From contig DASW01000007.1 of NCBI GenBank assembly GCA_002503985.1, forward strand, positions 108,435 through 172,434: a DNA stretch of 64,000 bases, read 5' to 3'. The translations under genes were made by a program, and so were the position numbers. The DNA comes from Thermoplasmata archaeon UBA61 (lineage in GTDB: Archaea; Thermoplasmatota; Thermoplasmata; Lutacidiplasmatales; UBA184). This document shows, in pieces, positions 51,503-58,386 of the stretch (the first letter of the stretch is position 1; each line of letters starts with the position of its first letter). The notes beneath the pieces are model-generated. The model searched no databases. It was given only the letters and a program-made list of their open reading frames with translations, and was not told the origin of the DNA.

Positions 51503-52072
51503 TCACGAGGGTGGCTTGCCTCGAATCCGGAGTATAGTCCGTGGCCCACGACCGGATTGAGAGATGGTATGGACCTCCAATCCCGCGCCACGGGCGGATC
51601 CAAGAACCGCGTGAAATGCCTCCTGCGTGAGAGGGTTGTCCAGCGGATAGAGGGTTCGGATTTCGTGTTGCGCGAAGGGGTATGGCTGGCCGTTGGGCAA
51701 GGTGGGAGGCGAGAGCCACAGCGTGAGCTTTGCCTCGGGGTCGTTCCAGCGATAATCCTTGCTCCGACCTTTGGCATAAGCGAGACGAATCCCCGTAGCA
51801 GAAACCTCTAGCCGCACGGCGCCTGGCGAGAACATGAATATGGCTAGGGTGCACAGAAATCCGACCCCTACCAGGATGAGCGACGCCATTCCGATCGAGT
51901 AGAGGTTCGAGAAGAAGCCCGGTGTCGTCGCGATTACGCCAACTGCGATCGCGAGTAGAAGCACGAACCCTGCCGTGAAGATAATTTGGACGGTTCGAGA
52001 CCCCCCACGGTAGTCGTGTAGGGAAGCGACTGAAAGGTCGAAGACTGCGGAGGCGGCTGCTGATTCAGTCAT
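51503..52072 (-). CDS. membrane protein (3-4 TM) coupled to the giant surface protein gene
   Basis: Start overlaps the stop of 52069..58386 (ATGA). Confidence 0.5.
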   Translation of the reverse strand: MTESAAASAVFDLSVASLHDYRGGSRTVQIIFTAGFVLLLAIAVGVIATTPGFFSNLYSIGMASLILVGVGFLCTLAIFMFSPGAVRLEVSATGIRLAYAKGRSKDYRWNDPEAKLTLWLSPPTLPNGQPYPFAQHEIRTLYPLDNPLTQEAFHAVLGSARGAGLEVHTISQSGRGPRTILRIRGKPPS

Positions 52073-58000: not shown

Positions 58001-58386
58001 GAATTGATCATGCCGAATGAGGACGGAGAAGAAGGAAGCGCTATCAGCCGAACGCTCGACGTAGGGTGCGTCGAGCCGAGTTGAGAAGGCGTGGGGAAGA
58101 GGGATGCACTGACGTTGTAGATGTATTCGAGGGGCCCATAACTGGCCGGCGATGATGCCGCCGGCCGGAGTCCGGAGGATTGGACAAGGGCGGCGGGGTT
58201 CGGCAGCGACGATTGGACGAGCATTAGCCCGACACAGAAGATTGCGACGACGACGGGGACTGAGAGAAGCCGAGAACGCCGGCGCCACGGACGCAAGTCT
58301 CCCATCGGGGATACTGGGGCCACCTGAGGAGGGCCTTCCCGGTCCGCGAACGTTTGACCGTTCTGGGTGTGTCGAGACGACTTCAT
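52069..58386 (-). CDS. giant (~2100 aa) surface glycoprotein with C-terminal polytopic membrane region
   Basis: Start taken at MKSSRH (58386, ATGA overlap with the upstream stop); the ORF track's ATG at 58434 would overlap by 52 nt. Signal-like N-terminus. Hundreds of N-x-S/T sequons. Last ~600 aa contain at least 8 hydrophobic helices. Confidence 0.7.
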   Translation of the reverse strand: MKSSRHTQNGQTFADREGPPQVAPVSPMGDLRPWRRRSRLLSVPVVVAIFCVGLMLVQSSLPNPAALVQSSGLRPAASSPASYGPLEYIYNVSASLFPTPSQLGSTHPTSSVRLIALPSSPSSFGMINSSRSGNAGALWFETGSYSASIAVQIQKRTCSTNCSTVPLLWNSPTRVASFSAPISSDALVAVGNTLVVAASGGGTTYLYQSANLGQTWRSLGTSISGVVNSVAATPSEVSVATLGITSVSVTSRTLTGSSVGQVTLTPSGSGATGILQTGSTTVPYGSTYLQATIFSVLGSDQIQLATSTNGGASYTAPTAVATFGVLTPDPRLSSIGATRLAPAASTPGQVALTSIGSGLFLAYTTQTASGQAQVMTEASSNGGQSWNGPYASGPVYGAVQNLSLSVSPAGLVYATWIDPYYGSGGIDEAIYFPDGMPLSEPSALAGTGIPTNTPSGAPAIAVDGFQRPMLAWPSPNPATSNAISFTGDFPSVNESLSLINLAVTDPLAPANFNPSTSTTQSNFNTSVASAIATASSYTAQASNLCNLQNWTALRLYANVTHVALSVLKSGTVCASSLKPNNQTSPIAPTVGPFAPNTYLAVYADWLLESEGVPVGVTPLANQSATVQTVSSLPSSASNQLSYSGQLESVTVTPSLYGPTSFQLGTSASIPSKFSGLANANYRVICNGAWNEVYYKWWTNLTSTSVSVSINGGTAHVFSGTTSYPSPVWVTNLTPYQTYTWTAKFTASYSEYMWAYAGPCVVDWGPVSPVTDGPSTESLSVPSSGSGSVTTTLSITNGGAVVQASFGSGSKTATISYSWGTTMPATGSGTLYNQTTGKYATVSPGTSYQLSQNLPVNPAGTSGNIYSASITATSRAGTGVPTGSSPVIAYDPGMTAPAQTATSSCGFTLSPPGFVIWGNSTSNDTATSALFSWYANTSGTGFVTLSESTWGGITESVSSIPGKLVSGGTRLYSVELDDLEPWTTYSVTYGISYGSGCVVDSVHANAPDSIVTPPVFPVWEQDLPYDSVGHVGGGAEIQWSLPSWFVGETPSLSSGCLGFKDIRNGSQFVVPIASSSEIIRPVGSATNFGFNVTLPTLNDTYSVSVYLNYTALSRAVNATGSATFVYERDSSGDGLTDVEKEAGWTIPLPYTQVPGGRPVNTCPPSSCIAPSEAVVTANPAKFSTNGLVSDFVEKELGLDPNTLDTAESQMLDTWNLTFAVSWSLLNSGWDVYNLWNESTTYRPFSSNVLYAPGLHEKGYPLATNIANLTPNPKNGIYSGDGSPWAAEVLWSGQAFQMLWGVWTQLESEISGVDFLRAVEGQWNGTPTLTVWGKLSWGANPLAVSTSNDGAPDGAQVNPLGGTDLQVTLTGWKDTANAAGNGVSAFVAANSSATYYSAARTDYGGYSVQVSAGSGGTANFPSSTSPKSFVVTFPVTNTEQFAYLNLSLVQNESTSNSPNTVYAIASTPHYKVDLANGQLQSVSYPSAGATPSISFTYQVLPVYSKAPTWILAPPNNSTLSPLPTGLSRYTAEQDFDLLVLNDTAPPGTNASKIAISGVFGPQSNWKYTVTLLPGLNNLLIPRAMFLASPLGQTLINATASAKVPSQHQDSSLTFNPYNWLPRVLNTSTNRPSSAGFIHVFSNTTQIYSGIDPSAFGGVASNPSLENGYQSRQVQAVFWINVSSAGYNSNLTTSAAELNDLLGGLLLNQSGNLTGNLINETAGLPALGLSSNVVTTLANATYRNDGAYGTPVSTSQPPPPSKPWWDVAASYVWNAVSGVVTVVAKLFSVGWNGIAAAAAYLADAAAALASKLGITALVSQTVTALRAIGTAMWTVLQALLNYIISFVKAILATAFAPLQAAISAYGSSVSVGLSGAVSDTVAGKAVSEAHAASFWNALLGPLFLTGIAIAVVAEVVIGILMGLSLGAGLLVGIVVGLIVSAVLQAIESSTSPNTSGLSKVTFINAVAIHATEGVANSTSPPAKNDGNWTTNWNALAGVADWTATLLSTQIGLGLLAAAYFQGDGLILPSVAFGLALVSIALGIAGASGNRLVQETSLGVSGTSVTLDLIDFAIYPADRSGPLLVLNALTAGLDFTSLGIGLGEFHEGS

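Follow-up and report, generated by a model that had tools for sequence, protein, structure and literature searches.

A giant sequon-rich gene of a Thermoplasmata archaeon ends in a hypervariable membrane domain that recombines together with its downstream partner gene

The 64,000-nt stretch of contig DASW01000007.1 (Thermoplasmata archaeon UBA61) analysed here, referred to as the window and used as the frame for all coordinates, carries a giant gene whose last ~270 aa, together with the small partner gene directly downstream, form one hypervariable recombining cassette that is swapped between strains. Because this C-terminal stretch and the downstream gene recombine as a unit and also occur as orphan copies, toxin-immunity or self-recognition is preferred over export as an explanation of the pair. 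We give a probability of roughly 0.5 to the view that the two genes constitute a polymorphic module, organised for toxin-immunity or for allelic self-recognition, in which the variable domain is embedded in the membrane.

The giant ORF (nt 52069–58434, reverse strand, as are all features of the module described below) runs without interruption for 2,121 aa plus stop when counted from the first ATG, and has start candidates at Met1 (nt 58434), Met17 (nt 58386) and Met44 (nt 58305). An earlier note on this DNA had given its span as nt 52069–58386; this correctly recognised a single giant frame, but the start it used is Met17, and the first ATG lies at nt 58434. The same note had raised the possibility of a frame-merging artefact. 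This can be dismissed, because three independent JGI contigs carry the protein in 100% identical form and between identical neighbours, and its architecture recurs in more than 500 cluster representatives. Clustering at 50% gave 518 representatives of the family, and homologs include 12 full-length proteins and occupy 43 genome loci. All belong to MAGs of Thermoplasmata, with no more than four paralogs per genome; the host of the gene described here is a peat/soil member of that group. The giant protein has zero matches in Pfam, NCBIfam, PHROGs and PADLOC, sequence and profile searches of PDB returned noise only, and Pfam searches with each of 13 homologs found just TIG or FN3-like matches in a few of them. 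The family is large, unannotated and outside every curated family, and the unusual combination to which the note had drawn attention, a giant glycosylated ectodomain joined to a multi-helix C-terminal membrane region, is real and conserved.

Near the N-terminus, a hydrophobic helix at aa 55–74 (nt 58213–58272), preceded by RRRSR and called by hydropathy, would act as a TM helix or signal anchor. It is also kept in homologs with complete N-termini, in agreement with the signal-like N-terminus reported earlier. The ectodomain (aa 75–1769; nt 53128–58212) is rich in S, T and N (S+T make up 23% of the residues of the giant protein) and holds 41 N-x-S/T sequons, against 24.4 ± 4.2 in shuffled sequences, none of 2000 of which reached 41. 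An AF2 run on aa 1130–2121, using a 45-sequence alignment, gave mostly strands at pLDDT 70–90 for aa 1150–1770, and Foldseek searches with the modelled ectodomain found weak C2-like beta-sandwich matches only. The description of this region as Thr/Ser/Asn-rich, beta-type and packed with sequons therefore stands for composition and sequon excess, and its beta character for the modelled aa 1150–1770. A beta-propeller, unmatched in Pfam, is likely near the N-terminal end, judging from three Asp-box/BNR-like motifs revealed by a motif scan (nt 57229–57762; SANLGQTW at aa 225, STNGGASY at aa 323 and SSNGGQSW at aa 395), all of them kept in the family consensus. The most conserved core of the family, with the densest invariant columns, is found at aa 1139–1368 (nt 54331–55020), where the motifs DSSGDGLTDxEK, NGLVSDYVEKExGLxPNTLDT and STxNDGxPDG resemble, in motif form, the Asp-rich sites at which thrombospondin type 3 sequences bind Ca2+.

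The ectodomain is followed by a Pro-rich linker (PPPPSK) and a conserved Ala-rich helical segment (aa 1770–1850; nt 52885–53127), both evident in alignments, and then by the hypervariable C-terminal domain (aa 1851–2121; nt 52072–52884). The helical region as a whole begins just past the PPPP linker, at about aa 1776, and covers ~350 aa (family median 356); AF2 places ~12 helices in it, of which only three reach a hydrophobicity compatible with TM helices. A multi-helix C-terminal membrane region, as the note had it, does exist, but it is considerably smaller than the ~600 aa with at least 8 hydrophobic helices envisaged there. The C-terminal domain is all-helical and consists of a TM hairpin (aa 1914–1961; nt 52552–52695) with the glycine zippers GILMGLSLG and GLLVGIVVG, a sequon-bearing loop, a third TM helix recognised by hydropathy (aa 2037–2061; nt 52252–52326), and a tail of ~60 aa. 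Throughout, TM calls were made from hydropathy scales, with no trained topology predictor. Across the family, TM-grade helices per module have a mode of 3 and a range of 0–5, apart from a single member with 8; such helices are found in 96% of modules, and the first lies at module positions ~150–200 in most members listed. Of 125 C-terminal domains, 44 contain the pattern GxxxGxxxG, whereas shuffled sequences gave 28.3 ± 4.4. The tail past the third TM helix is probably cytoplasmic, because the family-wide density of sequons is 0.19 per 100 aa there and 0.85 in the loop preceding that helix.

Structure prediction in segments, as the note had proposed, was productive for the ectodomain (see above), but in the same run the variable domain stayed at pLDDT 40–55, that is, with no confident fold, and a model of the C-terminal module alone (12-sequence alignment) reached a pLDDT of 39.7 and was unusable. 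A proposed search for homologs of this membrane module by itself yielded nothing but C-terminal fragments belonging to the family, and no stand-alone module outside these.

These data bear directly on the function suggested in the note, a self-exporting or channel-associated fibre, whereby the polytopic C-terminal module would be a channel that exports or threads its own fibre in an autotransporter-like manner, or would dock the fibre to a channel. The helices, the glycine-zipper hairpin and the membrane-bound partner could in principle make an oligomeric pore, but the module has three TM-grade alpha-helices, and some family members have none or one. An ordinary N-terminal export signal is present, Pfam, NCBIfam and PDB searches gave neither a similarity to translocators nor a beta-barrel, and the part of the protein that varies so strongly would not be an essential export machine. 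This explanation is accordingly considered highly improbable.

The border of the variable domain is a fixed recombination junction at aa 1850. Relative to the family member P0002, the giant protein is 96% identical over aa 892–1847 and 36% identical over aa 1848–2121; the last identical run ends at aa 1850, within the sequence TAMWTVLQ-ALLNY (hyphen at the junction). A second, milder variable patch, also evident from the comparison with P0002, lies at aa 691–891 (nt 55762–56364; 71% identity, with flanks at 93–96%). The junction is not peculiar to this pair. Among representatives that are at least 70% identical in the 240 aa before it, 17 of 17 pairs fall to 16–42% after it, and six reverse mosaics show the opposite arrangement (e.g. 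P0033/P0102, 29% before and 71% after). When 125 representatives were clustered at 40% identity, the C-terminal domain separated into 100 clusters and the upstream segment into 6. The junction shows no obvious protease or cleavage motif.

Orphan C-terminal fragments, each with a partner gene of its own, are present at loci L052/L053, L046, L014, L031 and L051. In L052 the order is full gene, partner, serine resolvase, a 482-aa signal-less C-terminal fragment, and a second, unrelated partner, a layout found in two independent assemblies and repeated in L046 and L014. Three C-terminal fragments stand in tandem in L031, and L051 has a stand-alone fragment and partner adjoining a transposase. In the three clean cases (3/3), main gene and orphan are 74–88% identical before the junction and 24–35% after it; a few of the orphans from long-read MAGs may be artefacts of frameshifts.

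The partner gene (nt 51503–52072) encodes a protein of 189 aa with two TM helices, and its ATG overlaps the stop codon of the giant gene as GGATCATGACT, so that the ATGA coupling to a downstream membrane protein was rightly noted before. An FDL motif is present near its N-terminus, its two TM helices (about nt 51827–51991) are poorly conserved, and its C-terminal domain of ~100 aa, with the motifs W-x-DP and LTxEA...HGL, is conserved. Partner genes lie directly 3' of 30 of the 43 module-ending ORFs, mostly overlapping them, and form tandem arrays of paralogs in L018 and L039. Partner identity follows that of the C-terminal region (Mantel r=0.25, matched by 33 of 2000 permutations) and not that of the upstream segment (r=0.04, 598 of 2000 permutations); the signal is modest. 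The partner has no match in Pfam, NCBIfam, PHROG, PADLOC or PDB. Its topology hinted at a bacterial PH (bPH_2) protein, a candidate that was abandoned when Pfam gave no support for it, but two weak matches to DUF6232.

Could the pair simply be a part of the cell envelope? On this account the giant protein would be a structural envelope protein or adhesin, such as a glycocalyx or S-layer-like tether, its C-terminal helices a mere anchor and the partner an assembly or anchoring factor, while C-terminal variation would stem from near-neutral drift and recombination, or from evasion of agents, viral or other, that make use of the membrane-proximal part. Thermoplasmata often have no rigid wall, the Asp-box motifs, C2-like domains and possible Ca2+-binding motifs would suit adhesion, and the genes neighbouring the family are chiefly housekeeping genes. 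The arrangement of signal or anchor, huge sequon-rich ectodomain and C-terminal TM region is also that of archaeal surface glycoproteins. Tetrabrachion, SlaB-type stalks and the Thermoplasma surface glycoprotein are likewise very large, heavily N-glycosylated and signal-bearing, with C-terminal helical or TM anchoring. These generic traits (signal, dense sequons, C-terminal membrane anchor) are, however, shared with many surface proteins, and the glycoproteins named have a single simple anchor and neither a cognate partner nor a hypervariable cassette or orphans. No S-layer domain was matched by Pfam or NCBIfam in the giant protein, and the occurrence of several paralogs per genome argues against a single lattice protein. 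A step from 96% to 36% at one fixed column, with reverse mosaics, is not a product of drift, and signal-less orphan fragments with their own partners have no role as plain anchors. Evasion predicts that exposed parts vary most, yet here the ectodomain is conserved and the most variable parts are the buried ones and those presumed to be cytoplasmic. A purely structural function is therefore unlikely, though it is to be taken seriously.

The genomic setting was examined as well. A tRNA gene (nt 41855–41954, forward strand; Rfam, 49.5 bits) is followed by a tyrosine integrase gene (nt 41998–43302, forward strand), whose product has only a weak Pfam match, below threshold, to the phage-integrase N-terminal SAM-like domain. 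Together they mark (nt 41855–43302) the left end of an integrated island carrying the giant gene. No attR repeat of the tRNA 3' end, which would define the right end of the island, is present in the window. The G+C content is 0.65–0.70 in the first 36 kb of the window, about 0.60–0.65 over most of the island part and 0.60–0.61 across the giant gene. Immediately upstream of the latter is an island-associated ORF outside the module core (236 aa from ATG; nt 58383–59093, reverse strand), of which a paralogous segment is found at nt 49409–49776. The coupling of an upstream conserved small gene, as described in the note, holds in so far as there is an ATGA overlap if Met17 is the start, but this gene is not a general neighbour of the family: its homologs are directly upstream of giant genes in L028 and L037, and elsewhere in L020, L027 and L047. 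Islands of this type recur, the module being located on a tRNA-integrated island in at least four loci. Related integrases adjoin tRNA genes in L021 and L027, and in L050 a frameshifted integrase homolog lies beside repeats of a tRNA 3' end. Such tRNA-integrated islands are a common setting for conflict systems.

The island could also be read as pointing to a function in the mobile element itself. The giant protein would then be a mating-pair adhesin, an entry or surface-exclusion factor, or a cell-cell fusogen of an integrative and possibly conjugative element, with the variable C-terminus and partner setting exclusion specificity. In addition to the integrase, the island carries a 1,047-aa TraD/VirD4/HerA-like ATPase and a DUF932 protein, 7 other loci have related integrases at distances of up to 10 kb, the element in L050 is bounded by an att-like repeat, and the gene for P0012 shares its contig with a DUF87 (HerA/VirB4-type) ATPase gene ~9 kb away. 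The best match of the island ATPase is, however, the defence-system protein mad8, and homologs of the ATPase and of the DUF932 protein were absent beside other family members. A Pfam census of 149 neighbouring ORFs contained no conjugation genes, the context of L001 is plainly chromosomal, and there are no homologs of the giant family in phage, plasmid or IMG/VR collections. We consider a role in element transfer or exclusion improbable.

The preferred interpretation, a toxin-immunity or self-recognition module, can be compared with several known systems. Polymorphic toxin systems, reportedly including CdiA-CT/CdiI, Rhs-CT/RhsI and MafB (Zhang et al. 2012), provide a close organisational parallel, with a large, conserved, exported N-terminal part, a fixed junction, a hypervariable C-terminal domain, a small cognate gene directly downstream, location on genomic islands, and orphan C-terminus-plus-partner cassettes that retain homology upstream of the junction. 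The Thermoplasmata module has the exported conserved N-terminus, the fixed junction, the co-varying downstream gene and the orphan fragments. Unlike those systems, the giant protein lacks known trafficking domains (TPS, FHA, Rhs/YD, PAAR and others) as well as known pre-toxin motifs (e.g. VENN, PxxxxDPxGL). Matches to the CdiA/CdiB (T5SS) hallmarks TPS, FHA and VENN were absent from Pfam and NCBIfam searches of the protein and its homologs, and no gene for a CdiB-type transporter was found among the neighbours. Their toxin domains are assorted soluble enzymes, whereas the variable domains described here share one helical TM layout; the partner resides in the membrane and its C-terminal domain is conserved, and the host is an archaeon with no outer membrane.

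A second parallel is found in archaea, namely the VARTIG modules of Thermococcales, whose function is unknown (Makarova et al. 2021, PMC8416519). They too are lineage-specific, with a large signal-bearing protein made hypervariable in its C-terminal region by recombination, small and mostly membrane-bound proteins encoded downstream, and a polymorphic-toxin-like organisation. In VARTIG an Ig domain (of an arCOG07710-type protein) is what varies, unlike the alpha-helical membrane domain here, and the downstream gene sets of VARTIG are varied, where the present module has one dedicated partner family. The lineages differ, no sequence relationship exists, and the likeness is one of organisation only; the same paper reports no VARTIG counterparts outside Thermococcales, and refers to polymorphic toxin systems in archaea as predicted but not tested (Makarova et al. 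2019 mBio, via PMC8416519).

At the level of the domain, the hydrophobic hairpin among low-charge amphipathic helices would resemble pore-forming colicins (A, E1 and Ia types) and the ionophoric CdiA-CT of the EC93 type, judging by hydropathy. Colicins likewise come in many specificity types, and here too a small cognate membrane protein would recognise the toxin within the bilayer. The hairpin and the low-charge helices are indeed present, although the bundle fold given by AF2 is unreliable (pLDDT 40–55). Unlike a colicin, the domain has an extra TM helix and a tail, measures ~270 rather than ~200 aa, and is attached to a Sec-exported giant protein; the partner differs from colicin immunity proteins in its conserved soluble domain of ~100 aa. 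The Pfam Colicin domain was not matched at E<=1 in 13 family members, and a PDB profile search gave only designed helical bundles at E>1. For allelic recognition, the IdsD/IdsE proteins of Proteus mirabilis offer a comparison. These two are co-encoded, and variable segments within or close to TM helices determine their allele-specific binding; one is a small inner-membrane protein, and delivery of IdsD is by a type VI secretion system. The present pair is also co-encoded and includes a small membrane protein, but its other member is a giant surface protein, there is no homology, and orphan cassettes are not a feature of IdsD/IdsE.

A mechanism consistent with these observations may be outlined. 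The N-terminal signal or anchor would export an N-glycosylated ectodomain of ~1,700 aa, the conserved part for display or delivery. Beyond the Pro-rich linker, the conserved helical segment and the junction at aa 1850, it would present the ~270-aa hypervariable helical domain, in which the glycine-zipper hairpin is followed by a probably extracellular loop and a further TM helix. The partner, whose two TM helices are variable and whose conserved C-terminal domain probably lies in the cytoplasm, would be the cognate intramembrane binder of the variable domain, and hence a factor for immunity or identity. When wall-less or thin-walled Thermoplasmata cells touch, the variable domain would act on the membrane of the neighbour, most likely as a pore-former or ionophore, and a neighbour lacking the matching partner would be harmed or recognised as non-kin. 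New specificities would arise by homologous recombination at the conserved segment, the donors being downstream orphan C-terminus-plus-partner cassettes or incoming DNA.

Several observations weigh against this interpretation, among them the low AF2 confidence for the variable domain, the lack of a cleavage motif at the junction, the modest co-variation, the possible artefacts among the orphans and the hydropathy-based TM calls noted above. Sequence searches (Pfam, NCBIfam, PDB, PADLOC) revealed no toxin, pore-former or immunity family. The variable domains have a single shared layout, unlike the unrelated folds of classical polymorphic toxins; the strongly hydrophobic hairpin should enter the producer's own membrane during Sec export, and its route to another cell lacks an explanation. 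A more specific proposal is correspondingly tentative, and the odds are against it: that the family represents a new mechanism of contact antagonism or kin discrimination in archaea, in which a glycine-zipper membrane pore effector is delivered between wall-less cells, by direct membrane contact, transient fusion or vesicle exchange, is neutralised inside the bilayer by an allele-matched two-TM immunity or identity protein, and draws new alleles from orphan cassettes.

By analogy with the systems compared above, the organisation bears the genetic hallmarks of systems for contact-dependent toxin-immunity or for self-recognition. The architecture, junction, hypervariability, mosaics, orphan cassettes and co-variation of partner and C-terminus are observed, whereas the topology, the toxic or recognition function and the dependence on contact are inferred from them. 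Polymorphic toxin and self-recognition systems shape bacterial communities; to our knowledge none has been characterised in archaea, where there are predictions only. The family consists of hundreds of clusters, is specific to abundant peat and soil Thermoplasmata, and is missing from every curated domain library. Its clean junction, cognate pairs and natural orphan alleles make it possible to test cognate against non-cognate combinations. If the variable domain acts as an effector, it would reveal how membrane toxins are delivered or policed by cells that have neither wall nor outer membrane, and if it is an identity tag, it would represent a form of kin recognition in archaea. Either way, the ~350-aa region and the 190-aa partner are two new domain families that need names.

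The giant glycoprotein gene is a single minus-strand ORF extending from 58434 to 52069, which encodes 2,121 aa when counted from its first ATG; its Met17 corresponds to the start (58386) chosen in an earlier note on this sequence. By hydropathy, a strongly hydrophobic helix (aa 55–74), preceded by RRRSR, is the sole hydrophobic segment before aa ~1847. All homologs with fully called N-termini show a basic leader of 45–60 aa followed by one TM helix, so the signal-like N-terminus described in that note is real, and either Met1 or Met17 is a plausible start. The suspicion that the ORF might be an artefact of frame-merging or assembly can be dismissed, because three independent JGI contigs, derived from different samples, carry an identical protein with the same neighbours.

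The protein contains 23% Ser+Thr and 5.7% Asn, and the ectodomain is indeed Thr/Ser/Asn-rich and packed with N-x-S/T sequons, of which there are 41 compared with 24.4 ± 4.2 in shuffled sequences (0 of 2000 shuffles reached 41). Near its N-terminus the family consensus has three Asp-box-like motifs; conservation peaks in a core at aa 1139–1368, which includes Asp-rich motifs of the DSSGDGLTDxEK type, and the distal ectodomain stays conserved up to a Pro-rich linker. AF2, using a 45-sequence alignment, models aa 1150–1770 as rich in beta-sandwiches (pLDDT 70–90), for which Foldseek returned only a weak C2-like beta-sandwich similarity (E ~2e-3) and no viral structural match. One homolog (P0008, 2,408 aa) has a Gly-rich insertion of ~340 aa within the conserved core. 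A mildly variable patch, additional to the far more variable C-terminus, occupies aa 691–891 (55762–56364): it is 71% identical to the homolog P0002 overall and 40–53% at aa 841–880, compared to 93–96% in its flanks. The patch could, by analogy with CdiA, be a variable region that binds a receptor.

Neither the giant protein nor its downstream partner had a match in Pfam, NCBIfam, PHROGs, PADLOC or PDB sequence searches. A word-indexed search recovered 12 full-length homologs (30–88% identity, 1,850–2,500 aa), one of them assigned by name to a Thermoplasmata archaeon MAG, and a profile of the C-terminal half, run in a full HMMER scan, gave 518 cluster representatives at E≤1e-3, 273 of which reach 1e-30. 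The best-scoring of these are mostly 1,900–2,750 aa long, the shorter ones having the look of fragments, and the majority span the C-terminal region as well as the distal ectodomain. Clustering of the representative library at 50% identity restricts how many close pairs it contains. Among species-representative genomes there were 43 loci. Nearly all of these belong to MAGs of Thermoplasmata recovered from soil, peat or bog, Lutacidiplasmatales among them (one record is titled only 'bacterium'), and a single genome can hold as many as four copies. No member turned up in phage, plasmid or IMG/VR collections.

A PPPP linker at aa ~1776 precedes the helical C-terminal region, whose length is ~350 aa (median 356 across the family). 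AF2 places about twelve helices in it at low confidence (pLDDT 40–55; 39.7 when modelled alone). Only three are of TM-grade hydrophobicity, as graded by hydropathy on the Kyte-Doolittle scale and a Hessa-type scale, namely a 45-residue hairpin (aa 1914–1961) and a third helix (aa 2037–2061). The other helices are Ala-rich, low in charge and weakly amphipathic. Thus the region is helical and multi-helix, as the earlier note proposed, but it is shorter than the ~600 aa and has fewer membrane helices than the eight or more envisaged there. Across 143 members the mode is also three TM-grade helices (range 0–5, with a single outlier of 8); six members have none. P0008 lacks such a helix in its C-terminal domain, so membrane character of the variable domain is not universal. 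Family-wide, sequons per 100 aa number 2.9 in the ectodomain, 0.84 in the pre-hairpin helices, 0.85 in the post-hairpin loop and 0.19 in the C-terminal tail, a pattern that would suit a topology in which the hairpin has its two ends outside and the third TM helix is followed by a cytoplasmic tail. The hairpin of the window protein is a glycine zipper with two GxxxGxxxG motifs, and this motif is present in 44 of 125 C-terminal domains, compared with 28.3 ± 4.4 in shuffles. We found no support for a self-exporting or channel-associated surface structure, the function first suggested for this architecture, and regard it as very improbable.

The decisive finding is that the C-terminal domain belongs to a cassette that recombines. 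Between the window protein and P0002, identity is 96% over aa 892–1847 but 36% over aa 1848–2121, the last identical run ending at aa 1850, between TAMWTVLQ and ALLNY. The step falls at the same alignment column in P0009/P0107, P0083/P0104, P0039/P0145, P0080/P0092 and P0035/P0040, and each of the 17 representative pairs that are ≥70% identical over the 240 aa before this junction shows only 16–42% after it. Six pairs are reverse mosaics (e.g. P0033/P0102, 29% before and 71% after). When 125 representatives were clustered at 40% identity, the upstream segment formed 6 clusters and the C-terminal domain 100, of which 90 were singletons.

Orphan cassettes also occur. In locus L052 a full gene and its partner are followed by a serine resolvase gene in the opposite orientation, then by a signal-less fragment of 482 aa beginning within the distal ectodomain, and finally by a second partner that cannot be aligned with the first; this layout is repeated in an independent ENA assembly. 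Full gene, partner, fragment and partner follow one another in L046 and L014, three fragments lie in tandem in L031, and in L051 a fragment and partner adjoin an IS630-type transposase. In L052, L046 and L014 the fragment is 74–88% identical to the main gene over 175–342 aa before the junction and 24–35% after it. In long-read MAGs, frameshifts may account for some of the broken ORFs. The serine recombinase (Resolvase) of L052 (7331–8002), seen also in L053, sits exactly between the main and orphan gene pairs, and may catalyse cassette exchange.

The partner ORF (51503..52072, minus strand; 189 aa, two hydrophobic helices) has an ATG overlapped by the stop codon of the giant gene (GGATCATGACT), in agreement with the ATGA coupling to a membrane protein reported previously. 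Downstream partners form one family, with an N-terminal FDL motif, two TM helices that are the least conserved part, and a conserved C-terminal domain of ~100 aa with W-x-DP and LTxEA...HGL motifs. They lie immediately 3' of 30 of the 43 module-ending ORFs, mostly overlapping, and a second small family takes this position in five further loci. Giant gene and partner are a real, conserved and unannotated two-gene module. Co-variation is modest: partner identity correlates with C-terminal domain identity (Mantel r=0.25, reached by 33 of 2000 permutations) but not with that of the pre-junction segment (r=0.04, 598 of 2000). The stand-alone fragment of L051 has the distal region closest to that of the window (up to 60–70% in 30-aa windows), and its partner was, at 41% identity, the best match to the window partner among the loci examined at that stage; a later database search found closer variants (63–65%). 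In L018 (8564–11947) and L039 (13126–16345), three tandem partner paralogs follow the giant gene with no C-terminal fragments between them, and resemble orphan immunity gene arrays.

A simple envelope protein or adhesin that has an anchor and a chaperone would account for the ectodomain but leaves unexplained the step-like junction, the mosaics, the orphans that lack a signal and have partners of their own, and a hypervariability that affects the buried rather than the exposed part; we consider it unlikely. Four traits of organisation define polymorphic toxin-immunity systems: the N-terminal body is conserved and exported; a fixed junction separates it from a hypervariable C-terminal domain; the gene immediately 3' co-varies with that domain; and orphan fragments keep upstream homology. 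All four are present here. The co-encoded variable pair is also a feature of allelic self-recognition pairs. We therefore propose, at a probability of about 0.5, that giant gene and partner are a putative module for contact-dependent antagonism or kin recognition. Variable domain and partner recall the IdsD/IdsE identity pair, and also colicins of the pore-forming kind or ionophoric CdiA-CT, each with a membrane immunity protein; as homology to none of them was detected, the likeness is one of functional analogy, not membership. Within the proposed reading, a pore-former with its immunity protein seems somewhat favoured over a pure identity tag. The variable domain should insert into the producer's own membrane during export, which leaves an effect on another cell unaccounted for.

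The window has a G+C content of 60–70%, and 41855–64000 looks like an integrated island, with ~0.60–0.65 over most of its length versus 0.65–0.70 over the window's first 36 kb. It immediately follows an ordinary pstS-pstC-pstA-pstB-phoU phosphate-uptake operon (36618–41360), the chromosomal flank, and starts with an intron-containing tRNA (41855–41954; matched by Rfam, missed by ARAGORN) and a tyrosine integrase (41998–43302). A 1,047-aa P-loop ATPase (43676–46819) with weak TraD/VirD4/HerA matches (its best hit being PADLOC mad8, 7e-16), a DUF932 protein (47343–48218, minus strand) and two tandem, diverged IS110-family transposase genes (60183–62624) are also present; no attR was found inside the window. 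A 43-nt repeat (93% identity) occurs 5' of the second IS110 copy (62582–62624) and by the small ORFs of the island (59286–59328). Directly downstream of the partner is a 494-aa YVTN/NHL-type beta-propeller protein (49890–51374, minus strand), which is not conserved beside other family members; tblastn gave only weak, YVTN-repeat-level similarity in L026 and L039, in the latter case inside the giant ORF itself. Three copies of a G+C-rich 54-nt repeat (80% identity; 48419–48472, 49786–49839, 51427–51480) lie one each in the gaps between consecutive minus-strand genes (DUF932 gene and a 289-aa ORF; a 72-aa ORF and the propeller; the propeller and partner). They may serve the island as a common promoter or terminator.

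The ORF 5' of the giant gene (58383–59093) has an ATGA overlap with it only if Met17 is the start, as in the earlier note. It is absent beside most homologs. Its conserved core of ~120 aa (...RTRFESRVAFGGPDEDEDAE...RLRDLRGRVKAARA...) recurs in a shorter paralog in the window (49409–49776, 78–97% nucleotide identity), in L027 (4511–4861, 7771–7989, 8701–8910, 16507–16638), L028 (9434–9661) and L037 (8256–8516, 9324–9455). In L028 and L037 relatives of the ORF sit immediately 5' of the giant gene, and three more loci have them elsewhere; in other genomes the core is directly 5' of giant genes or partner-like genes. It may be a regulator or leader gene of the cassettes.

These surroundings, with integrase, TraD/VirD4/HerA-like ATPase, DUF932 and IS110 genes and a lowered G+C, could suggest that the pair serves a mobile element, and related integrases occur near seven other family members (adjoining tRNAs in L021 and L027, with att-like repeats in L050). 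The ATPase and DUF932 genes are not, however, common to other family loci, a Pfam census of 149 neighbouring ORFs picked out transposase HTH domains as well as housekeeping genes and none for conjugation, and the context of L001 is plainly chromosomal, making a mobile-element function improbable. Genomic islands commonly house conflict systems, so the island fits an antagonism or kin-recognition module.

Polymorphic toxin-immunity systems are known in archaea as predictions that have not been tested (PMC8416519). Among described systems, VARTIG of Thermococcales is the nearest analogue, and the study that describes it reported no equivalent from other archaea (PMC8416519). The variable part of VARTIG is an Ig domain, whereas that of the giant protein is membrane-embedded. 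In its organisation, the module is a new variant of the polymorphic, cassette-swapping conflict or recognition systems, in a lineage and with a type of variable domain previously undescribed.
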